Positions 6,436-63,767 of a DNA stretch of 64,000 nucleotides are shown here, in pieces. This DNA comes from Escherichia coli (lineage in GTDB: Bacteria; Pseudomonadota; Gammaproteobacteria; Enterobacterales; Enterobacteriaceae): assembly GCF_017348835.2 (NCBI RefSeq), contig NZ_CP071375.1, one strand, 5' to 3'. Made by a program: the position numbers and the translations under genes. Below the pieces are notes generated by a model, which saw only the letters and a list, made by a program, of their open reading frames with translations, made no database searches and was not told the DNA's origin. Every line of letters starts with the position of its first letter. Position 1 is the stretch's first letter.

Positions 6436-7131
6436 ATGTCCATTGCGGTAACCACCACCGATCCGACAAATACCGGCGTCAGTACCACCAGCAGTAGTTC
6501 GCTGACGGGCAGCAACGCCGCAGATTTACAAAGCAGTTTTCTGACTTTGCTGGTGGCGCAGCTGAAAAACCAGGACCCGACCAATCCAATGGAAAACAAC
6601 GAGCTGACGTCGCAATTGGCACAAATCAGCACGGTCAGCGGGATTGAAAAACTCAATACCACGCTCGGATCTATTTCCGGACAGATTGATAACAGCCAGT
6701 CGTTACAGGCCAGTAACCTGATCGGTCACGGCGTGATGATCCCCGGCACCACTGTTCTTGCGGGAACCGGCAGTGAAGAAGGGGCTGTGACCACGACCAC
6801 GCCGTTTGGTGTTGAGCTGCAACAGGCGGCAGACAAAGTTACGGCCACCATCACCGATAAAAATGGCGCGGTTGTGCGCACCATTGATATTGGTGAACTG
6901 ACCGCCGGAGTCCACAGTTTCACCTGGGACGGTACGTTGACTGACGGCAGCACTGCGCCGAACGGTTCTTACAACGTAGCGATTAGCGCCAGTAACGGTG
7001 GTACACAACTGGTTGCCCAGCCGCTGCAGTTTGCTCTGGTGCAGGGTGTGATCCGCGGCAACAACGGTAATACGCTGGATCTCGGCACTTACGGCACCAC
7101 CACCCTCGACGAAGTACGGCAGATAATTTAA
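6436..7131 (+). CDS. flgD: flagellar hook capping protein FlgD
   Basis: 231-aa ORF recognised as FlgD. Confidence 0.93.
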   Translation: MSIAVTTTDPTNTGVSTTSSSSLTGSNAADLQSSFLTLLVAQLKNQDPTNPMENNELTSQLAQISTVSGIEKLNTTLGSISGQIDNSQSLQASNLIGHGVMIPGTTVLAGTGSEEGAVTTTTPFGVELQQAADKVTATITDKNGAVVRTIDIGELTAGVHSFTWDGTLTDGSTAPNGSYNVAISASNGGTQLVAQPLQFALVQGVIRGNNGNTLDLGTYGTTTLDEVRQII

Positions 7132-7155
7132 GCCTTCACATTTCAGGAGTCAGTC

Positions 7156-8361
7156 ATGGCCTTTTCTCAAGCGGTTAGCGGATTAAACGCTGCCGCCACC
7201 AACCTCGATGTTATTGGCAACAATATCGCCAACTCCGCCACCTACGGCTTTAAATCAGGCACGGCCTCTTTTGCCGATATGTTTGCCGGTTCGAAAGTGG
7301 GACTGGGGGTAAAGGTTGCCGGTATCACTCAGGACTTTACCGATGGCACGACCACCAACACCGGGCGTGGTCTGGACGTTGCTATCAGCCAGAACGGTTT
7401 TTTCCGTCTGGTAGACAGCAACGGTTCGGTGTTCTACAGCCGTAACGGACAATTTAAGCTGGATGAGAACCGTAACCTGGTGAATATGCAAGGTTTACAG
7501 CTGACGGGTTACCCGGCAACCGGTACGCCGCCGACTATTCAGCAAGGGGCGAATCCGACCAATATTTCGATCCCGAATACCCTGATGGCAGCGAAAACTA
7601 CCACCACGGCGTCGATGCAGATCAACCTGAATTCCAGTGATCCGCTTCCCTCTGTTAACGCATTCGATGCCAGCAATGCGGATAGCTATAACAAAAAAGG
7701 TTCGGTGACTGTTTTCGATAGTCAGGGTAATGCTCATGACATGAGCGTGTACTTTGTGAAGACCGGGGATAATAACTGGGAGGTCTACACCCAGGATAGC
7801 AGTGATCCAACAGGCACAGCTGACCGTGCAATGACGCTGGTGTTTAATGCCAATGGCGTTCTGACGTCAAATCCAACAGAGAATATTACAACTGGCGCAA
7901 TTAACGGCGCAGACCCCGCCACGTTTAGCCTGAGCTTCCTCAACTCCATGCAGCAAAATACCGGCGCTAACAACATTGTGGCAACCACCCAGAACGGATA
8001 CAAACCGGGCGATCTGGTGAGTTATCAAATCAATGATGACGGTACGGTTGTTGGCAACTATTCCAACGAACAAACCCAACTGCTGGGGCAGATTGTACTG
8101 GCGAACTTTGCCAACAACGAAGGTCTGGCATCCGAAGGCGACAACGTCTGGTCTGCGACGCAATCTTCTGGCGTGGCGCTGTTGGGGACAGCCGGGACGG
8201 GCAACTTTGGCACCCTGACCAACGGTGCGCTGGAAGCGTCCAACGTCGATCTCAGTAAAGAACTGGTCAATATGATCGTTGCCCAGCGTAACTATCAGTC
8301 TAACGCCCAGACCATCAAAACCCAGGACCAGATCCTCAACACGCTGGTTAACTTACGCTAA
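7156..8361 (+). CDS. flgE: flagellar hook protein FlgE
   Basis: 401-aa ORF recognised as FlgE. Confidence 0.93.
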   Translation: MAFSQAVSGLNAAATNLDVIGNNIANSATYGFKSGTASFADMFAGSKVGLGVKVAGITQDFTDGTTTNTGRGLDVAISQNGFFRLVDSNGSVFYSRNGQFKLDENRNLVNMQGLQLTGYPATGTPPTIQQGANPTNISIPNTLMAAKTTTTASMQINLNSSDPLPSVNAFDASNADSYNKKGSVTVFDSQGNAHDMSVYFVKTGDNNWEVYTQDSSDPTGTADRAMTLVFNANGVLTSNPTENITTGAINGADPATFSLSFLNSMQQNTGANNIVATTQNGYKPGDLVSYQINDDGTVVGNYSNEQTQLLGQIVLANFANNEGLASEGDNVWSATQSSGVALLGTAGTGNFGTLTNGALEASNVDLSKELVNMIVAQRNYQSNAQTIKTQDQILNTLVNLR

Positions 8362-54944: not shown

Positions 54945-54957
54945 AGCAGGAAGCATT

Positions 54958-54988
54958 GCCTGATGCGCTACGCTTATCAGGCCTACAA
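54958..54988. repeat. REP element
   Basis: GCCTGATGCGCTACGCTTATCAGGCCTAC between cobB and potD. Confidence 0.75.
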
Positions 54989-55099
54989 GCGGACCACAAT
55001 ACCAACGAAAGAGCGGGATAAAACTTTACTGTCCTGACTCATTAGCCACATCCTTGCTAACTAAAAAACGGGCGGTAATACCACCGCCCGCTTGCTGAA

Positions 55100-56146
55100 T
55101 TAACGTCCTGCTTTCAGCTTCTGATAATACTCTTCATAAATGCTGCTGGCTGCGCCAACGTCATTCTGCCATTCGCCATTTTTAATGGTTTCAGCATCCG
55201 GGTAGAGCGTCTTATCGTTCGCCACTTCTGGACTTAACAGCTTACGCGCCGCAAGGTTTGGCGTTGGATAACCGATAGTTTCAGCAACCTGTTTTGCCAC
55301 ATCCGGGCGCAGCAGGAAGTTGATCAATTTCAGCGCGCCTTCTTTGTTTTTGGCATTTGCCGGGATCGCCAGGCTGTCCATCCAGAATATGCCGCCTTCT
55401 TTCGGCCACACCACGTCAATAGGCGTACCCGCCTGGCGTGCAACGAAAGCAGAACCGTTCCAGATCATGCCGAGGTTAACTTCGCCTTCCATGTACGGGT
55501 TAGCCGGGTTATCGGAGTTAAACGCTGCGACGTTTGGCATCAGTTTTTTCAGCTCGTTATATGCAGCTTCAATCTCTTTCGGATCGGTGGTGTTACCGGA
55601 GTAGCCCAGCTTACGTAGCGCCATCTGGAACACTTCACGGGCATCGTCGGTCAGCAGCAGGCTGCCTTTGTACTCAGGCTTCCACAAATCGGCCCAGCTG
55701 GTGACAGATTTCGGATCCACCGCATCACCGTTAACGCCAATCGCCGTCGCACCCCAGATATACGGAATGGAGTAATCGTTATTCGGGTCAAACGGCTTAT
55801 TGAGCATGTCTGGATCGAGATTGCTGAAGTTCGTTAACTTCGACTTGTCGATCTTCTGGATCATCCCTTCTTTACGCATTTTATCGACGTAATAGGTTGA
55901 AGGAACCACCAGGTCATAGGCACCGTCTTTGTACGTTTTCAGCTTGGCATACATGGTTTCGTTCGACTCGTAAGTCGAATAGATAACCTTAATACCGGTT
56001 TCTTTGGTGAACTGTTCAAGCAGTCCTGGCGGCACGTACTCGGTCCAGTTGTAGAAATACAGCGTGTTGTTGTCATCGGCGTGAGCGGCGCTCATGCCCA
56101 GTGCCAGAGCACCCGCCGCGAGCAGGTGGCGTGACCATTTTTTCAT
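55100..56146 (-). CDS. potD: spermidine/putrescine ABC transporter periplasmic binding protein
   Basis: 348-aa ORF with signal peptide, recognised as PotD. Confidence 0.94.
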   Translation of the reverse strand: MKKWSRHLLAAGALALGMSAAHADDNNTLYFYNWTEYVPPGLLEQFTKETGIKVIYSTYESNETMYAKLKTYKDGAYDLVVPSTYYVDKMRKEGMIQKIDKSKLTNFSNLDPDMLNKPFDPNNDYSIPYIWGATAIGVNGDAVDPKSVTSWADLWKPEYKGSLLLTDDAREVFQMALRKLGYSGNTTDPKEIEAAYNELKKLMPNVAAFNSDNPANPYMEGEVNLGMIWNGSAFVARQAGTPIDVVWPKEGGIFWMDSLAIPANAKNKEGALKLINFLLRPDVAKQVAETIGYPTPNLAARKLLSPEVANDKTLYPDAETIKNGEWQNDVGAASSIYEEYYQKLKAGR

Positions 56147-56937
56147 TTAACGTCCCCTGTGTTACCTTTCGTTTTATCACGAGCAATAAGCTGGCTGGCA
56201 ATAACCATCACCAGCGACAGCACCAGTAATATGGTTGCCAGCGCGTTAACTTCCGGCGATACGCCGACTTTGACCATCGAATAAATTTTTAACGGCAGAA
56301 TTTCATAACTCGGCCCAGTGACGAACGAAGAAACAACCACATCGTCCATCGACAGGGTAAAGCTTAACACCCAGCCCGCCGCCACCGCTGGCATTGCCAG
56401 TGGCAGAATGATTTTTCGCAGAATGGTAAATTCGCTGGCACCGAGATCTTTCGCCGCTTCCAGCATTCGCACGTCAAAACCTTTCAGGCGCGAATACACC
56501 GTCACCACCACAAATGGCAGGCAGAAGGTGATATGCGAGAACAGCAGCGACCAGAAGCCAAGCTGAATACCCAGCAGCATAAACAGCACCAGCAGCGAAA
56601 TTGCCATCACGATATCTGGTGACATCATTACCACAAACAGCATTCCGCTAACGAACGGCTTACCACGAAAGCGATAACGGTACAGTGCAACTGCCGTCAG
56701 TGAACCGATAAGCGTAGCAAACGTCGCTGAAAACACCGCCATCGTCAATGAATGCTGAGCTGCCTGCAACAGACTGTCGTTGTTCATCAGCAGGCTATAC
56801 CATTTAGTGGTAAAACCCTGCCAGTTGATGCCAAAGCGCGAGCTGTTGAAAGAGTTCACAATCAAAATAATGATTGGAATATACAGGTACGCGTAGATAG
56901 CGGTCATAAAACCGCCGCGAAGCAGTCGACCGATCAT
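56143..56937 (-). CDS. potC: spermidine/putrescine ABC transporter permease
   Basis: 264-aa ORF recognised as PotC; 4-nt overlap with potD. Confidence 0.94.
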   Translation of the reverse strand: MIGRLLRGGFMTAIYAYLYIPIIILIVNSFNSSRFGINWQGFTTKWYSLLMNNDSLLQAAQHSLTMAVFSATFATLIGSLTAVALYRYRFRGKPFVSGMLFVVMMSPDIVMAISLLVLFMLLGIQLGFWSLLFSHITFCLPFVVVTVYSRLKGFDVRMLEAAKDLGASEFTILRKIILPLAMPAVAAGWVLSFTLSMDDVVVSSFVTGPSYEILPLKIYSMVKVGVSPEVNALATILLVLSLVMVIASQLIARDKTKGNTGDVK

Positions 56938-56969
56938 TCGAGTTCCACCTTTTTATTCATAAGGCGGGA
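56934..56969 (-). pseudogene. potB: 3'-terminal remnant of potB, cut off by the prophage junction
   Basis: Minus-strand frame ending in TGA that overlaps the potC ATG (ATGA) encodes ...SRLMNKKVELE; this matches my recollection of the PotB C-terminus, and the frame is open for only 37 codons (to 57047) with no membrane-permease body upstream. Confidence 0.45.
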
Positions 56970-57245
56970 CACTTTCAGGTTTTTGAATTTATTCAATTTT
57001 TTCCTTTCTCCAAAATCTCTCCAAAACTTTTCCCCAAAACAGGACCACGCATTTTACAGCATTTTTATACATGGGTGAGCTTACTAGGACAGAAAAGTAT
57101 TCCAGTTTGTTTACCCATATCGCTTTCCGAATGAGATTTTTGATGTGATTTCTTCGTGTTGAAAAACCACATAATGTGGTATTAGAATTAGCTATCAAGA
57201 TTCACTTTGAATCCGTTTTGAATCCCATTGAACTCAGGAGTGACT

Positions 57246-57449
57246 ATGAAGCGTAAAAGTGTGGCTTTGTTACAAGCCATTGGCTCGGTTATAGCCCTGA
57301 GCCCGACGGTCGTTTCAGCAAATGGCATGCCAGCGAATCCAGTTTCCGCTTTGCGTCAGGATGCTGCGGCTATCAGAGGCGATTTCCAAAAAGCAATGGT
57401 ATCCGTTAACGTTGAAAAGCTGAACAATGCCAGATCAAAAAGAAAGTGA
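57246..57449 (+). CDS. small secreted protein, unknown function (prophage cargo)
   Basis: 67 aa, MKRKSVALLQAIGSVIALSPTVVSA is a signal peptide with a likely cleavage site after VSA; AGGAG Shine-Dalgarno 5 nt upstream; the listed ORF starts at an in-frame TTG at 57228. Confidence 0.55.
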   Translation: MKRKSVALLQAIGSVIALSPTVVSANGMPANPVSALRQDAAAIRGDFQKAMVSVNVEKLNNARSKRK

Positions 57450-57534
57450 GAACACCAAACTCACTTGTGAATAACAAAAGGATAATGAACTGGTTTCTCG
57501 AGTAATCGAAAATCCAGAGGTCTTAAACAGGGTT

Positions 57535-57894
57535 TTGGATAGTCCGCAGGTGCGGGCTATTGTTTGCCAGCATTTTCAGGGGCCTGTTCCGCCACCTTCA
57601 ATGCTTAAAAAGTATGATCAACTGGTGCCTGGGCTTGCAAATCGACTTGTTGAGTTGACCGAAAAAGAGCAGGCTCATCGCCATAAAACAGTGGCTGATA
57701 GCATTGATATTGCCAGAGATGGTCAAACAAAGGCTTTTTGGTTGGCAATATTGATCATCTTAGCTGCCACTGTCTTTGGCGTCATGGGGGAGACAGTTCT
57801 TGCCGGAACTCTCGTTTCAATAGATCTTGTTGCATTGGTTACGGCATTTATTGTTGGAAAACATTATTCTAAGCAGGAACCTGATCAAGATTAG
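57535..57894 (+). CDS. DUF2335-like two-transmembrane-helix membrane protein (prophage cargo)
   Basis: N-terminal PVPPPSMLKKYDQLVPGLANRLVELTEKEQAHRH followed by two hydrophobic helices; start uncertain (TTG 57535 or ATG 57601), no strong Shine-Dalgarno. Confidence 0.5.
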   Translation: MDSPQVRAIVCQHFQGPVPPPSMLKKYDQLVPGLANRLVELTEKEQAHRHKTVADSIDIARDGQTKAFWLAILIILAATVFGVMGETVLAGTLVSIDLVALVTAFIVGKHYSKQEPDQD

Positions 57895-57902
57895 TCTCCG
57901 AA

Positions 57903-57925
57903 CCCCGGTTGATGCCGGGGTTTTT
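57903..57925 (+). terminator. rho-independent terminator after the cargo cassette
   Basis: CCCCGG-TTGATG-CCGGGG followed by TTTTT, 9 nt after the stop codon. Confidence 0.8.
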
Positions 57926-57970
57926 ACACTAGCAAAGCAATATCAACATTTTTCAGCTGCATTTATTTCG

Positions 57971-59089
57971 TCAAACAACCAATTTAACCCATTCCTGACC
58001 ACGAGTATCGTTATAACGATCGGTGGTTGCTTGGACTTTATGTCCCAGTAATGTTTTTGTATCAATACCCTGCGCGCGGTACAGTCGTTCTGACAGGGAG
58101 CGTTGTTCATGAAATGTTGGCGGAGTTTTTCCTGCTGGTGGAGTTATCCCAGCCAGATCCCGTGCTTTGGCAAAGTAGTCGCTCAGGTTGTCTTTACTCA
58201 TCGGCTTTGGTTGTTTCTGGTGCCGACTATGGATTAGATATGGACTTAATATTCTGTCTCGGCACCCATCAATAACTTCTTTTAACGTTATCCCAATGGC
58301 ATCACAGCGTAGTGTAAGCGGTAACGCCAGACGCATTCCGGTTTTTCCCTGGGTGATATGCAAGTGTTCGTTCCACACATCTGAAAAACGCATGTGGCAA
58401 ATGTCATCACGGCGCTGACCAGTAACAATCGCAAGAAGCATTGCGTTACGGATAAAGTGTTTTTCAGGCGTTGCGTTGTAAATTTTTTGCCAGTCTTCCA
58501 GGGTGAGCCTGGCTCTAGTTACTTTAGGGATCGGTTTACGGGTAGCCTCCGGAGGATTCCATCCAGGAGGAACTTCCCCTGCATGCTGTGCTTCTTTATA
58601 AATATCAACCCATAATCCACGATTTACTCTCGCTGTGCTGACCATGTCTTTATCCAGCCACTCATCCAGTATTAATGCAAAGTCTCTTACTTCCAGTTCT
58701 TTCAATGGGTGGTTTCCCAGACGGGAAACCAGGTATGCAGCCATTCGGGCTTTTTCTTTGTGAGTTGTAGCTGCAATATCTCCATTTTTCAGTCGCGTGT
58801 CCTGTATTTTCAGATATCGATCAACCCATGCCTTTAATCTGATACCCCGACGCTTTGTTGCTGACGGACTTTCATCAATTTTGCGCATGAAATATTCAGC
58901 CTCTGCTGCAGCTATTCGCTGATTGGCTGTGGAAGCGATTTTTTCTGCCTTACCTTTGTCTGTTCCGAGCCCGTGAAATTTTCCAGTCACAGGGTTTTTA
59001 TACTGGTAGTAAACTCTGCCAGTTCTGCGATCAAATTTTTCGTAAAGTCCGGCTACGTCAGTGCTGTTTTTTCGTGGCCTCGGTGACAT
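57971..59089 (-). CDS. int: phage integrase (tyrosine recombinase, lambda Int family)
   Basis: 372 aa; lambda-Int-like C-terminal catalytic region (VTGQRRDDICHMRFSDV, PPTFHEQRSLSERLY, LLGHK, conserved Tyr in TDRYNDTRGQEW). Confidence 0.9.
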   Translation of the reverse strand: MSPRPRKNSTDVAGLYEKFDRRTGRVYYQYKNPVTGKFHGLGTDKGKAEKIASTANQRIAAAEAEYFMRKIDESPSATKRRGIRLKAWVDRYLKIQDTRLKNGDIAATTHKEKARMAAYLVSRLGNHPLKELEVRDFALILDEWLDKDMVSTARVNRGLWVDIYKEAQHAGEVPPGWNPPEATRKPIPKVTRARLTLEDWQKIYNATPEKHFIRNAMLLAIVTGQRRDDICHMRFSDVWNEHLHITQGKTGMRLALPLTLRCDAIGITLKEVIDGCRDRILSPYLIHSRHQKQPKPMSKDNLSDYFAKARDLAGITPPAGKTPPTFHEQRSLSERLYRAQGIDTKTLLGHKVQATTDRYNDTRGQEWVKLVV

Positions 59090-59336
59090 GAGTTAAAATC
59101 TCCTTCAGTGCATCATCATCGCCAGTATGAATTTCCGGCGCAATTCCTGTTTCACCAGGTCCAACAAATACTGCTCGGCGATCTATCAGCCAACGCCCAC
59201 GAATTTTTTGTGGTCTTGGAACGATGTATCCTAGTTTTCCGTATTTCACCAGGGTAGTGTTTGTTATTGGGAGACTGAACCGTTTTGGCTTCCACTCATC
59301 GAGCGTTATCAGGTACTGTTCGCTCATGGCTATCAC
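59058..59336 (-). CDS. xis: excisionase (Xis)
   Basis: 92 aa; YLITLDEW...GRWLIDRRAV resembles lambda Xis (MYLTLQEW...); 32-nt overlap with the int start as in lambda; start could be Met1 or Met4. Confidence 0.75.
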   Translation of the reverse strand: MIAMSEQYLITLDEWKPKRFSLPITNTTLVKYGKLGYIVPRPQKIRGRWLIDRRAVFVGPGETGIAPEIHTGDDDALKEILTHVTEATKKQH

Positions 59337-59388
59337 TCCGGAACGCGCCAGTTGCAGAATACCAACGACAACTGGCGACGGTTGAACA

Positions 59389-61860
59389 TTAAAAATCAGC
59401 CTGACTCGGGATCAGTTTTTGCCAGATAACTGAAACGTATTTTGCCTGATAACGGGCGTCATCAAGTGCATTATGGCGCTCACCTTCGAATGGAATAGCC
59501 GTTCTGGCATCGAAGTCTATGGCTTTCCCCAGCTCAACGATTGTGCGTACATCGCGATCGTTGTAGTAACGCCACGGGCAGGGGATCCCCTGCCGTTCGT
59601 ATGAACGGCGCAAAATCGTGTTATCGAAGTTGGCTCCATTTCCCCAGACCTGAACAAAAAATTCACCGGAGTTTTCGTCGATAAATTCCCGCAATTGTAA
59701 CAGTGCATCATCTAACGGGATTTCATCGGTCATAATGGCAGATTGCGCTTCGCGTGATTGCTTAAGCCACCATTTAATGGTGTCCCGATCAATGACTCCG
59801 CCAGCAGTTTCCAGATCGATAGTCTTACTAAATTCCGGTCCCATATCTCCGGTTTGCGGATCGAAAAATATTGCACCTATTGAGATGATCGGGGCATCAG
59901 GATTTTTTCCCATGGTTTCAAGGTCGATCATTAGATGGTCACACGTCCTGCTGGTGGATGTGATTTCTTGATGACCGTTCACCTTAATTGAGTGATCTGC
60001 CGTCTCGCCAGTTTCACTATCGCTGGCATGATGCTGATTGCCGCCAGTGTTCTCCTTGTGTGGATGTTCAGCGCCTTCCATTTTCTCCGGATCATCTTCC
60101 TGAACTTCAACCTGATACTCTTCATCGAATGTTTCCTGGTATGTTGCGTCGCCCATCACCGCGCCACAATCAGGGCAGTTGCCGCCGCCGGTCTGACCGC
60201 AGGCGGTGCAGGCTTTTTCCACTTCCTGTTGCGCCACTGGTTCAGGCTGTTTCGTTTCTGGCTCGTTTTGTAACGCATTTGGGCTGTTTTGTTCCGCTTT
60301 TTGGTAGTTCCGTTCCGATTCATGCTGGTTCTGGTTTACAGAATCGCGGGTCTGGATCCCCTTAACCCATTTCGGATCATTCGGGTCGCTAATCCCTGCA
60401 ACAAATTCTCCGCGAGAGGCAGCAAGCAACTTATCGGCGTCAGGCTGGCTGATATTGGCTGCCTGCATAATTTTGTTTACTTCGTCAGCGGTAACTTTTA
60501 CCGGCTCTGGTTGTGCGGTCGTGTCAGATGCACCAGTATTTTGTTGTGAACCTGAGTATGTACTGTTTTTGCGGGCGAAATATTCTTCTTTCGTGATTTC
60601 AGTAGCCCCGGCAGCCAGTGCCTTATCCAGACCAGAAAGTTTGTTTGCGCGACCGTATTTTTCGCCATCCTTGTCGGTGAAGAGGAAGTAGAACGGCCCC
60701 TCACGCTCTACAGATGGTTCGACTTCCACTTTGCATTCGGTTTTTTCGTTGTCCGGAATTGCCGTTTCCACTGCATCAGTTTCTGGTACTGGCGACGAGA
60801 GAGTATCAGTTGCGCTCTGATTTGTTCCTTCATCTTCAAACACGCCCTTTGTAGTCAGGTATTCAGTAATGTATTTGTTCAGTGCCACAGGGTCTTTGTG
60901 AATGTCGATCGGACGTTCACGGACAAGGCCAAAAATAGTCTGGCGGTCGTAGCGAAGGGCATCAGGCTGTTTGCGCATTGATGCCGAGATACGCTTCCAG
61001 TCTTCGCGGTCGTTGTCGATAACTTCATTTTTTGCCCAGCGATGGATGCTGCCGTCAATGTTTCCGGCATCCACATCACCAGGCCAGAGAGCGTAGGCCA
61101 GTTCGTCATCCAGTGTTTTCCATGTCTGCTTGTATTCGCGATGAATGGCAGCAATGACCGGGCTGATTTTTCCTGTTGAATTTTCAGTGTGCTGTTGATT
61201 GGTTCTGGCGCGGGCGAGATCAACAACAGACGTGTATTTTCCGGTTTCCTTGCGTTCACCTTCGCGACGTTTTTTCCAGATGCGCATCTCTGCCTGAATT
61301 TCGGGCCATTTGGCACCAGGCTTACATTTATGCTTAACCCACCCGATGGCATGCAGCTTAAGCTCCGGATACATGGCGTTAACTTCTGGCATTTTCATCA
61401 ACGCTTCAACGATATGTCCGTCGAATGTTGCCATGTCTTCCTGCAACAATTCCTGTGCGCTAATAACCATATCAACGGTGATGTTTTCACATGTGTCGAA
61501 CTTAACCATGACAGCGTTCTGTACTTCAGGGGCCAGCTTGTCAAAAGTGACGTTCATCGGATCTGATTCAGTCTCAACCGGAACAAAGGAAGCAGACTCC
61601 TCATCCCAGCGGTTTTCCTGCATATATTCAGCATCCCATGAATCGAGGGCAGGGCGGGGTATGCCAGGTTTATCCTCGCAGATAATAAATTTATAAGCGC
61701 AGTCCTGAGCAGCCGGATAATGTTCCAGGAATTGCCAGTGAAATTTTGCTCGAGCACGGCGTTCGTCGCCAGCTTCAATAGCTGTGGCTACAGCCACAGC
61801 GCCTTCTTCCCTTGTTGCCAGTTCGTCAGGAATGGCGGCGCAAATAAAGACTTTACTCAT
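59389..61860 (-). CDS. phage exonuclease of the family often annotated exodeoxyribonuclease VIII, with C-terminal DnaQ-like DEDDh 3'-5' exonuclease domain
   Basis: 823 aa; C-terminus carries Exo I (MIDLETMG), Exo II (VWGNGANFDNTIL) and Exo III (HNALDDARYQAKY) motifs; central acidic/Gln-Pro-rich segment with Zn-ribbon-like CTACGQTGGGNCPDCG; sits in the exo/recE slot of a lambdoid early-left operon. Confidence 0.75.
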   Translation of the reverse strand: MSKVFICAAIPDELATREEGAVAVATAIEAGDERRARAKFHWQFLEHYPAAQDCAYKFIICEDKPGIPRPALDSWDAEYMQENRWDEESASFVPVETESDPMNVTFDKLAPEVQNAVMVKFDTCENITVDMVISAQELLQEDMATFDGHIVEALMKMPEVNAMYPELKLHAIGWVKHKCKPGAKWPEIQAEMRIWKKRREGERKETGKYTSVVDLARARTNQQHTENSTGKISPVIAAIHREYKQTWKTLDDELAYALWPGDVDAGNIDGSIHRWAKNEVIDNDREDWKRISASMRKQPDALRYDRQTIFGLVRERPIDIHKDPVALNKYITEYLTTKGVFEDEGTNQSATDTLSSPVPETDAVETAIPDNEKTECKVEVEPSVEREGPFYFLFTDKDGEKYGRANKLSGLDKALAAGATEITKEEYFARKNSTYSGSQQNTGASDTTAQPEPVKVTADEVNKIMQAANISQPDADKLLAASRGEFVAGISDPNDPKWVKGIQTRDSVNQNQHESERNYQKAEQNSPNALQNEPETKQPEPVAQQEVEKACTACGQTGGGNCPDCGAVMGDATYQETFDEEYQVEVQEDDPEKMEGAEHPHKENTGGNQHHASDSETGETADHSIKVNGHQEITSTSRTCDHLMIDLETMGKNPDAPIISIGAIFFDPQTGDMGPEFSKTIDLETAGGVIDRDTIKWWLKQSREAQSAIMTDEIPLDDALLQLREFIDENSGEFFVQVWGNGANFDNTILRRSYERQGIPCPWRYYNDRDVRTIVELGKAIDFDARTAIPFEGERHNALDDARYQAKYVSVIWQKLIPSQADF

Positions 61861-61953
61861 TTTGTTTTAACCTCATGACAGATTTAAGGATGAACAAATC
61901 CCTGCCATTGCTGGCATATAAGAATGAAACCGGATATTTATTACGGAACTGTT

Positions 61954-62145
61954 TTAAAGACCTGCCGGGATTTCGATATTATCCTGGTGAATAACTTTAT
62001 CGACCGGGTAACAGTTACCGGGAATTTTCTGTTCGGTTGCTGCAGTCATACACTCCTGCATTGTCCTGTGAACACTGACTGCAATATCAACTGGCTCTCC
62101 GGAAACAAGAAAAACTGTCAGAACAAGTGCAAATGCTGTATTCAT
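61954..62145 (-). CDS. YdfD-like small membrane protein
   Basis: 63 aa from Met19 of the listed ORF (MNTAFALVLTVFLVSGEPVD...); its ATG overlaps the dicB-like stop as ATGA; hydrophobic N-terminus; resembles my recollection of Qin prophage YdfD. Confidence 0.55.
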   Translation of the reverse strand: MNTAFALVLTVFLVSGEPVDIAVSVHRTMQECMTAATEQKIPGNCYPVDKVIHQDNIEIPAGL

Positions 62146-62330
62146 TGCCAGCATCCTTTTTGTATCGGACGTAAACGGGCCAACATTGAAAGAATGCATA
62201 TTTTATTTAATAGCTCCCGTTCGTGTTTTCTCTTGTTAATGGCATCTTCAGTAAATACAGGGTTACTGATAGTGACACCAATTTCAAAACAACCTTCAGA
62301 CGTATTAACGTTTGGTAATAACGTTTTCAT
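62142..62330 (-). CDS. dicB: DicB-like cell-division inhibitor
   Basis: 62 aa from the internal Met of the listed ORF (MKTLLPNVNTSEGCFEIGVTISNPVFTEDAINKRKHERELLNKICILSMLARLRPIQKGCWQ); GAGGG Shine-Dalgarno 8 nt upstream; closely matches remembered DicB; lies directly downstream of the DicF-type sRNA. Confidence 0.65.
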   Translation of the reverse strand: MKTLLPNVNTSEGCFEIGVTISNPVFTEDAINKRKHERELLNKICILSMLARLRPIQKGCWQ

Positions 62331-62499
62331 TATCGCGCCCTCAACAATGAGTTTTGTGATGCGGTGCCTGGTGCCTCCAGGTGACGTTAACCAGTTAACA
62401 ACTAACGCCGGATACAGAGAATCCAACCATAACACTGTTTTTGGTTTTAACTGTTCCGCGTGCGCTTAGCCGCATTCACCGCATCACAAAATTCACTTT

Positions 62500-62557
62500 A
62501 AAAAGGGCGGCAGAGCAGTCACGGAGTAAAACTGATACCGCCAAACGTCACCAGAAA
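62500..62557 (-). ncRNA. dicF: DicF-type small RNA with 3' terminator
   Basis: Minus strand reads TTTCTGGTGACGTTTGGCGGTATCAGTTTTACTCCGTGACTGCTCTGCCGCCC followed by TTTTT; I recognise this 53-nt sequence as DicF; position immediately upstream of the dicB-like gene fits. Confidence 0.75.
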
Positions 62558-62819
62558 ATTGATAACAGAGGGCGTTGCAGCGGGGTTGTCACTTAAGCGT
62601 ATGGTCAACCTGACAACCCGGTGTCCTCAACGGGGGAAGGAATAACCCCGCCATACTTACCGCCGCGCCATTTCGCGGATTGCCACAACCAGAAGCGCAC
62701 GGTCGAAGAAATTTAACGACAAGACTTATATGCAAAGGGATCTCGCCGTGCGCTTTCGTGTTATGCCCTGACTTTTCAGGGTAAATTAACCTGTGGAAAC
62801 CTGTTTTTACTGGCGCTAA

Positions 62820-63059
62820 TCAGTTAGCGTTTCTGGCTAACCAGCGATGCGCGGCAGCTTCGGTTTTAAACGTTTTACTTTTGGTATACGTCATCGCGGT
62901 AAACGTGCCGTCCTGATTGGGAAACACGCCACATACCAGAGATTCGTTGTTGCCAAGCTCGATAGTATCCATGCTGACCTCATTTCCCCTTAACGCTGGG
63001 GTAGCGGAACTAAAAACCTGCTGCGCTGTTATACAAAGTGTTCCCGCCGTCATGTTCAT
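62820..63059 (-). CDS. DUF1391 protein (YdfA / YdaF-like)
   Basis: C-terminal 50 aa (MDTIELGNNESLVCGVFPNQDGTFTAMTYTKSKTFKTEAAAHRWLARNAN) resemble the prophage YdfA/YdaF family; an internal ATG at 62972 has a good Shine-Dalgarno (GAGG, 6 nt), so the true product may be the 50-aa form. Confidence 0.55.
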   Translation of the reverse strand: MNMTAGTLCITAQQVFSSATPALRGNEVSMDTIELGNNESLVCGVFPNQDGTFTAMTYTKSKTFKTEAAAHRWLARNAN

Positions 63060-63290: not shown

Positions 63291-63767
63291 TTAAGTTCCT
63301 GTCTTGGTGATGTTCTGGCTTTTCCGTTTTGATTCTTGATTTTTCAGATAGTTAGCTACCTTCATTTCCATTGCGGCAATGTAGGCGCGAACGTCATGAT
63401 CAACCCAACTAGGCTCCGTAGCATTTCCAGATAAGAGGAAAGCCACAATTGCTCTTTTTTCATCAGAGGCGGCTTGATAAAGGCTGTTTATGTCTAAAAG
63501 TTCACTTTTTGTATCTGAAGTGGATGGGGTTGGTATGGGGTATTCGTTAAGCCCCCAATGCTCTGGACCAACCACATCAGAAAAGAAACGCCATAGTTCT
63601 GGAAGTTTGTCTTTACTTATCGAACCTTTCTTAATCCAGTCATGGATTGATGGTGGTTGGACTTTGAAATGACGTGCGATTTCCGCCTTTGATTTGACGG
63701 CTCCTGATGCAATTTTTTTGTTAATGGCCTGCTCTATCGCTCGGCCTAAGTCTTTACCACTAAGCAT
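63291..63767 (-). CDS. prophage repressor (CI-equivalent; RacR-like)
   Basis: 158 aa; HTH-like segment SKAEIARHFKVQPPSIHDWIKKG; located between PL-like and PR-like promoter/operator regions and divergent from the Cro-like gene; AGGAG Shine-Dalgarno. Confidence 0.65.
   Translation of the reverse strand: MLSGKDLGRAIEQAINKKIASGAVKSKAEIARHFKVQPPSIHDWIKKGSISKDKLPELWRFFSDVVGPEHWGLNEYPIPTPSTSDTKSELLDINSLYQAASDEKRAIVAFLLSGNATEPSWVDHDVRAYIAAMEMKVANYLKNQESKRKSQNITKTGT

Follow-up and report, generated by a model that had tools for sequence, protein, structure and literature searches.

We are confident that positions 56948 to about 57066 of the window (the whole 64-kb stretch of E. coli DNA analyzed here) are the attL site (BOP′, the int-proximal end) of a lambdoid, Rac-like prophage that was inserted into the last codons of potB by a lambda-family tyrosine integrase. 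The first-pass annotation had put the insertion point of a prophage at the very 3′ end of potB, and our comparisons bear this out, as similarity to the K-12 potC-potB locus is unbroken to 56959 and then ends, with phage DNA beyond. The insertion as such is already known, since potB has been documented as a hot spot for prophages in pathogenic E. coli, and a very common one; the base-level anatomy of the att site is a routine refinement. The exact form of the prophage is found in 210 complete genomes, including the reference O103:H2 12009. An att site resolved to the base (core, probable overlap, and candidate arm sites) is of use for calling prophage boundaries and for typing. Annotating the insertion as a potB knockout would be wrong, since the ORF of potB stays complete. 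The features of the region are collected in Table 1.

Table 1. Features of the potB junction and of the adjoining prophage DNA, with att sequences (positions are those of the window)
Feature	Position	Strand	Basis or remark
potD	55100-56146	-	Intact ORF
potC	56143-56937	-	Intact ORF; first gene downstream of attL, separated from potA-potB
Host potB tail at attL	56934-56959	-	Last ~7-8 codons, (N)KKVELE, plus TGA overlapping the potC ATG; identical to uninterrupted potB-potC loci to 56959
Common att core CCTT(T/C)TTATTCA, 12 bp	56948-56959		Three-way alignment of attL, attB (K-12), and attR (PE164, O157:H7 SS52, Stx1a phage records)
Probable 7-bp overlap (crossover) TTATTCA	56953-56959		Host or phage origin of 56952, and lambda-like geometry
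Candidate C′ core-type Int site AAGGC	56961-56965		Inverted partner of GCCTT on the attP P side; read from the window and PE164 attR
Candidate P′ arm-type Int site TCTCCAAAA (P′1-P′3 set)	57007-57015	+	Sequence repeat
Candidate P′ arm-type Int site TCTCCAAAA (P′1-P′3 set)	57018-57026	+	Sequence repeat
Candidate P′ arm-type Int site TCCCCAAAA (P′1-P′3 set)	57031-57039	+	Sequence repeat
Cargo ("moron") module, ~0.85-0.9 kb	57067-57968	+	Absent from most potB prophages
Promoter-like sigma-70 site	57159-57188	+	10/12 consensus match; the region holds no more such sites than shuffled sequence
Small ORF, 67 aa	57246-57449	+	Signal-peptide-like N-terminus
DUF2335 membrane-protein gene	57427-57894	+	PHROG 3996 and Pfam DUF2335; broken by TAA at 57472-57474
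Strong hairpin plus T-run	57900-57925		-20.5 kcal/mol, z = -4.5
Lambda-family tyrosine integrase, 372 aa	57971-59089	-	PHROG integrase families; lambda Int structure alignment
Excisionase (xis)	59058-59336	-	RefSeq start 59327; PHROG 629 at E = 5e-26; annotated in PE164
RecE-like exonuclease (exodeoxyribonuclease VIII), 823 aa	59389-61860	-	Annotated in 640R1 and in the identical part of PE164
racR	63291-63767		In the Rac-like early region, which starts with the RecE-like exonuclease and runs past the window end
attB (K-12)			...GTTCCA CCTTCTTATTCA GCAAACGAG...
attB core context with polymorphic base			...TTCCACCTT(T/C)TTATTCAGCA...
attL (window)			...GTTCCA CCTTTTTATTCA TAAGGCGGG...
attR			...CTGTTG CCTTCTTATTCA GCAGACGAG...
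attP across the core (reconstructed)			...CTGTTGCCTTCTTATTCATAAGGCGGG...

The host-phage junction and the att site

In K-12, potB is the next gene upstream of potC. In the window potC is intact, as had been described; in the PE164 locus, which is 100% identical, RefSeq annotates its product as WP_000580316.1, a protein that K-12 and O157 SS52 also encode. The minus-strand frame upstream of it ends at 56934, has 39 codons, and reads NAWSCFGEKFWRDFGERKKLNKFKNLKVSRLMNKKVELE before its stop; its tail is KNLKVSRLMNKKVELE, followed by a TGA that forms an ATGA with the start codon of potC, in keeping with the original description. Of the SRLMNKKVELE tail, the "SRLM" is coded by the P′ arm of the phage and roughly NKKVELE alone comes from the host; the Shine-Dalgarno sequence of potC, AAGGTGG, lies within this host-derived part. 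Alignment to an uninterrupted locus, which had been proposed as a check, put the breakpoint at 56959, and beyond that position a BLAST search of all 64 kb of the window with the K-12 locus found no other K-12 potB sequence. A longer phage-borne copy of potB was considered as the source of the "SRL" likeness of the P′ arm and was rejected, since the match to SRLL is just 5 of 9 nt, a level that cannot be told apart from chance or from shared core-type site needs.

When a 601-bp junction probe was compared with complete E. coli genomes, 5424 of 5426 matched, and they fell into three classes. In about 3,900 of the 5,426 genomes potB lies directly beside potC and the match runs to 56959 only; in O157:H7 and many others it runs to 57066; and in 210 genomes it extends along the whole probe. 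The first 107 bp of the P′ arm are present in 1,514 of the 5,426 (~28%), at 90% identity or higher in 1504 of the 1514 carriers, and the segment 57080-57960 is present in just 210. The sequence past the potB tail had been called unrelated DNA, and indeed the segment 56960-57970 does not belong to the conserved DNA of the host: the ~3,900 genomes in which potB adjoins potC lack it.

The att core had been predicted to lie in 56.94-57.05 kb, and comparison of attL, attB, and attR places it at 56948-56959. A matching core was expected at the other prophage end, where the 5′ part of potB should lie, and was found there, in the attR of PE164 and SS52. One position within the core is polymorphic: 56952 is T in the attL of the window, PE164, and SS52, and C in that of 640R1, which has a K-12-like host; up to and into int, the P′ arms of SS52 and 640R1 differ at no other base. 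The equivalent base of attR is always C (PE164, SS52, and seven Stx1a-phage records were compared), also in genomes that have T at attL. Many prophage-free genomes (BL21, for example) match 56925-56959 perfectly, including the T at 56952, and this T is therefore a host polymorphism; the idea of a post-integration core mutation locking the prophage in was dropped on the same grounds. The base at 56952 is host-side at attL and phage-side at attR, which argues for an exchange to its right, in TTATTCA. The crossover thus placed within 56953-56959 is probable, based as it is on one polymorphic position in few genomes and on the lambda analogy.

An attP was reconstructed from attL and attR, and in it the 7-mer would be flanked on either side by a single base and then by one half of a perfect 5-bp inverted repeat (GCCTT-C-TTATTCA-T-AAGGC). 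The layout of the lambda core, with its 7-bp overlap, is the same (AGCTT-T-TTTATAC-T-AAGTT). A search of the phage collection with 299 nt of the reconstructed attP returned no contiguous free-phage attP, and the matches were all prophage-derived, comprising the right ends of Stx1a phages with attR, the attL of 640R1 and 813R8, and a Klebsiella attL. The window prophage is not a Stx1a phage, a candidate that was ruled out because the left ends of the Stx1a records share nothing with the window.

Three tandem direct repeats of the P′ arm (57007-57039), spaced 11 and 13 bp, are candidates for the arm-type sites of the integrase. Exact copies of TCTCCAAAA number just two in the 64-kb window, a count reached in 8 of 100 shuffles, and a further exact copy lies in the P arm of the PE164 attR, ~120 bp from the core. 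The block of three repeats is kept in the attL of a Klebsiella prophage at the 3′ end of dcp, where the flanks differ and the Int is 43% identical. This conservation, which we take as a footprint, supports the reading of the repeats as putative arm-type Int sites.

The junction had been described as an attL with a lambda-type int whose 3′ end faces it, and both points stand; the integrase, of 372 aa, is encoded on the minus strand. The alignment with lambda Int (PDB 1z1b) has an E value of 2e-54 and covers nearly the full length, query residue 26 being paired with lambda residue 22 at its start. R226, K249, H327, R330, H350, and Y359 of the integrase all align with the lambda Int catalytic set, whose members we take to be R212, K235, H308, R311, H333, and Y342. 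The integrase has an N-terminal arm-DNA-binding domain, and the RefSeq name of the identical protein is "phage integrase Arm DNA-binding domain-containing protein." The xis gene overlaps the start of int.

The junction may also have an older origin, with homologous recombination, instead of integration in the lineage of the window, having brought in the integrated prophage and its flanking chromosome from a divergent E. coli donor. Such an arrival would fit a cluster of 13 substitutions in ~190 bp of potC (56686-56878), which ends ~70 bp from the att core, leaves the PotC protein unchanged, and sets the window apart from K-12, 640R1, and O157; it would also fit what is described for PP_potB, namely repeated loss or regain as well as replacement (PMC9997748, PMC7067040). 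However, a prophage-free genome has a 98.5%-identical potC allele, and the allele may belong to the host lineage. We consider this history possible, though on the whole unlikely; it concerns the past of the locus alone and leaves the structure of the attL unchanged.

The other prophage end and the fate of potB

The other end of the prophage is outside the window, and attR and the state of potB were read from two proxies, PE164 and SS52. PE164 (NZ_CP114128.1) is 100% identical to the window over 56099-62978 and then has an IS3 that the window lacks. Its element is 53.1 kb long and has a complete lambdoid map, with a Rac-like early region (int, xis, exonuclease, dicB, and racR), a middle part with replication, antitermination, and lysis genes as well as HK97-type head and lambda-type tail genes, and a right end where type III effector genes (NleG family, EspW) form a block; potB and potA lie beyond it. 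The prophage in PE164 has IS3 insertions and frameshifted structural genes, making its present-day mobility doubtful.

The earlier view that potB is reduced to a stub does not hold in these lysogens. At attR, potB is a complete ORF of 287 aa ending in SRLLNKKATEIDD before its stop (...LLNKKATEIDD in PE164), compared with 285 aa and ...SRLLNKKVELE in K-12. The last four PotB codons, VELE, are exchanged for six codons of the phage P arm, ATEIDD in PE164 and ATEIDN in O157:H7 SS52, and the rest is identical to K-12; RefSeq annotates both ORFs as PotB. In all, three lysogen records show an intact PotB at attR. Judged from these sequences, potB is remodelled at its last four codons and not truncated. 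Insertional inactivation, with potB cut to a 5′ fragment at the far end and the PotABCD transporter abolished, would agree with the presence of just the last ~8 potB codons at attL and with a split operon in which potCD has lost the potA promoter. It is at odds, however, with the full 287-aa ORF that PE164 and SS52 both carry, with a PotC protein that is identical in lysogens and K-12, and with the sharing of the arrangement by ~28% of complete E. coli genomes, and we find it hardly credible.

We propose that integration brought together a phage attP (...GTTG CCTTC TTATTCA TAAGGC...) and a host attB (...TCCA CCTT(T/C) TTATTCA GCA...), with the exchange taking place within TTATTCA. At attL, this would leave the end of the host potB, with the ribosome-binding site of potC, fused to a phage P′ arm that carries the three tandem candidate arm-type sites. 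At the far end, the body of potB would be joined to the P arm, which would supply six codons and a stop and give a near-native, open potB. A self-contained cargo unit would have been inserted later, between the arm sites and the end of int.

The proposed splitting of the potABCD operon is physically real, as potAB and potCD lie at opposite ends of the prophage (the far end seen through PE164 and SS52), and potCD is left without the potA promoter. Under the integration proposed here, potCD may be transcribed only from inside the prophage. Read-through on the int strand would be the simplest source of the transcript, because only attL parts int from potC in the common form of the prophage; a promoter scan found no promoter facing potCD above chance, that is, no more sites than in shuffled sequence. 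In a microarray study of EDL933, potABCD are listed jointly, not gene by gene, as raised in rpoS mutants (PMC2907692), and the papers on potB prophages cited here do not address the expression of potC-potD once a ~50-kb prophage parts them from their promoter. It could be imagined that, in the ~28% of E. coli with a prophage here, potCD are transcribed only by int-strand read-through and polyamine uptake is tied to the state of the prophage, so that excision would restore potABCD and the whole would act as a reversible switch akin to "active lysogeny"; where the cargo is present, the convergent moron would modulate the read-through further. We regard this scenario as speculative and improbable.

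A cargo module between the attL arm and int

The integrase gene had been reported 1 kb from the junction, and this distance is correct, but a gap of that size is unusual for potB prophages, most relatives having an int that ends ~166 bp from potC. Such is the case in 640R1 and O157:H7 SS52, which are without the cargo. Compared with 640R1 and O157:H7, the window departs from the common form of the prophage at ~57067, and the two run together again shortly before the int stop. The 210 of 5426 genomes with the cargo form include O103:H2 12009 and ETEC E24377A.

Morons usually consist of a promoter, small ORFs, and a terminator, and the predicted layout of the cargo, with a promoter-like site, two small genes, and a terminator, is that of a moron. 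PHROG 3996, the family matched by the DUF2335 protein, is itself placed in the category "moron." Relative to O103:H2 12009, the DUF2335 gene of the window carries a G-to-T nonsense change at 57472. Searches of PHROG, PADLOC, and NCBIfam gave no family match for the 67-aa ORF, NCBIfam gave none for the cargo proteins, and Rfam returned only chance-level matches on 56800-59500. A role of the DUF2335 protein in defence was considered, and the sole PADLOC match, PD-T4-6, was marginal (E = 0.0014) and was not taken as evidence.

A module that most potB prophages are missing could also be a separate small integrative element or satellite (56960-57970) sitting in tandem with the prophage, particularly as a core-like TTTTTATACAT occurs at 57062-57072, where the arm begins to diverge. 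This 11-mer was rejected as a secondary att site, being no better than other chance repeats in the AT-rich kilobase. The segment has no recombinase of its own; it is located past the three P′ arm sites and runs up to the stop codon of int, and hence is inside the attL-int unit; and its content of a promoter-like site, two small ORFs, and a terminator matches the usual moron layout. A separate element is thus very improbable, and we retain the reading of the segment as cargo of the prophage.

Relation to known prophages

Prophages at this site have been reported repeatedly. Sp6 of O157:H7 Sakai has potC and potB as its flanks (PMC8190617), a prophage flanked by potC/potB is present in a second O157 strain (PMC7609406), PP_potB is variably present in O157:H7 clade 8 (PMC9997748), and potB is a site of prophage replacements in O145:H28 (PMC7067040). 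The insertion point of Sp6/PP_potB between potC and potB in O157:H7 clade 8 and O145:H28 is the same as in the window. The potB prophage of O157 (SS52) has an integrase that is 99% identical, the same excisionase protein, and a P′ arm that is 94.5% identical to that of the window, and the two have in common a Rac-like early region and T3SS-effector cargo at the right end. The effectors there differ, with NleG and EspW in PE164 vs NleL, EspN, and EspK in O157, and the window form has the extra ~0.85-0.9 kb module (small, putatively secreted ORF and DUF2335) between the arm sites and int.

The closest form is that of O103:H2 12009 (NC_013353.1), whose potB prophage has the same attL, cargo, int, and xis; a single base out of 891 distinguishes the two cargo modules, and 55608-62786 is 98.5% identical. 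In that strain the DUF2335 gene is intact and encodes 155 aa, whereas the window has the nonsense codon at 57472-57474, and the region left of racR differs from the window. Phi-CFT073-potB of uropathogenic CFT073 lies in potB and has Rac-like structural and recE genes (PMC4632033), and it is listed elsewhere as a 44-kb island under the name Phi-potB (PMC3573123); its likeness to the window prophage in insertion site and Rac-like genes is taken from the published description.

The Rac prophage of K-12, at ttcA, has a similar early region with a recE-like exonuclease, dicB/ydfD-type genes, and racR, and its integration likewise alters the C-terminus of the target protein (PMC4632033). Its integrase specificity and its target gene are different, and the target of the window prophage lies in the middle of an operon.

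Lambda shares with the window prophage an Int with an arm-binding N-terminus and the RKHRHY set, an xis upstream of int, and an int beside attL. Likewise, both have a short T-rich core with an inverted repeat round a 7-bp overlap (a probable one in the window prophage), and the three tandem P′ sites and at least one P-arm site of lambda have their counterparts in the candidate sites described here. The two differ in core sequence and in target, which is the intergenic DNA between gal and bio for lambda and the 3′ end of potB for the window prophage; the candidate arm-site motif, TCTCCAAAA, is also different from that of lambda. Unlike lambda, the window prophage carries cargo between attP and int.

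The DUF2335 gene and the relation of the window to PE164

In the cargo-bearing prophage of O103:H2 12009, the DUF2335 gene encodes 155 amino acids, whereas in the window codon 16 is changed from GAA to TAA by a single G-to-T substitution, and RefSeq annotates a 119-amino-acid ORF downstream of this stop, starting at a TTG. Among the 210 genomes with the cargo, full (100%) identity to the window is limited to a few (PE164, 2013C-4974). PE164 carries one IS3-family element next to the stretch it shares with the window and a second inside the tape-measure gene. The first of these insertions is absent from the window, and the window strain is therefore related to PE164 but different from it.

Coordinates of features in the window and in related sequences
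Feature	Position	Remark
DUF2335 cargo gene	57427-57894	stop codon at 57472-57474
RefSeq ORF start	57535	TTG
First IS3-family element, PE164	L004 (PE164 locus) 6881-8190	equivalent to window ~62978
cobB-potD interval	54945-55099	
potC substitution cluster	56686-56878	5′ part of potC
Inverted repeat	56983-56996	TTGAAT-TT-ATTCAA, perfect
TTTTTATACAT	57062-57072	
TTTGAATCC pair	57206-57225	
Klebsiella phage ST13-OXA48phi12.4	MK422450.1 (L008, its locus) 2440-2606	integrated at dcp 3′ end

Host flank and the far prophage end

Between cobB and potD, K-12 has ycfZ and ymfA, whereas the window has neither; both are also missing in PE164 and O157 SS52. Because 4849 of the 5426 complete genomes have the two genes, the arrangement in the window is a minority form. 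Closer to the prophage, potC differs from K-12, 640R1 and O157 SS52 at 13 sites in ~190 bp, and despite this dense cluster the PotC protein is identical in all four. The cluster, which stops ~70 bp short of the att core, may be a recombination tract brought in with the prophage.

Seven database entries named as Stx1a-converting phages, LC744186.1 (loci L006 and L007) and six sister records, close with 5.7 kb of sequence at 99.6% identity to PE164, made up of the right arm, attR and the beginning of potB. Their left ends share no sequence with the attL or int of the window. These mixed ends suggest that the prophage is a hybrid, or that the chromosome was inverted between two prophages.

Repeats around attL and comparison with known integration systems

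The TTTGAATCC pair, two exact tandem copies 11 bp apart, follows the promoter-like site and precedes the small cargo ORF, and may be an operator. TTTTTATACAT, which falls exactly where the P′ arm begins to diverge from the common form, differs at one of 11 positions from TTTTTATTCAT, the core extended by one base, a likeness that is probably due to chance in AT-rich DNA.

A perfect inverted repeat separates the core from the first of the arm repeats, a place that in lambda is occupied by the H′ IHF site. The Klebsiella prophage ST13-OXA48phi12.4 has the same three CCAAAA arm repeats as the window, and the integrase adjoining them is 43% identical to the window Int; it represents a related Int lineage with another target gene, dcp.
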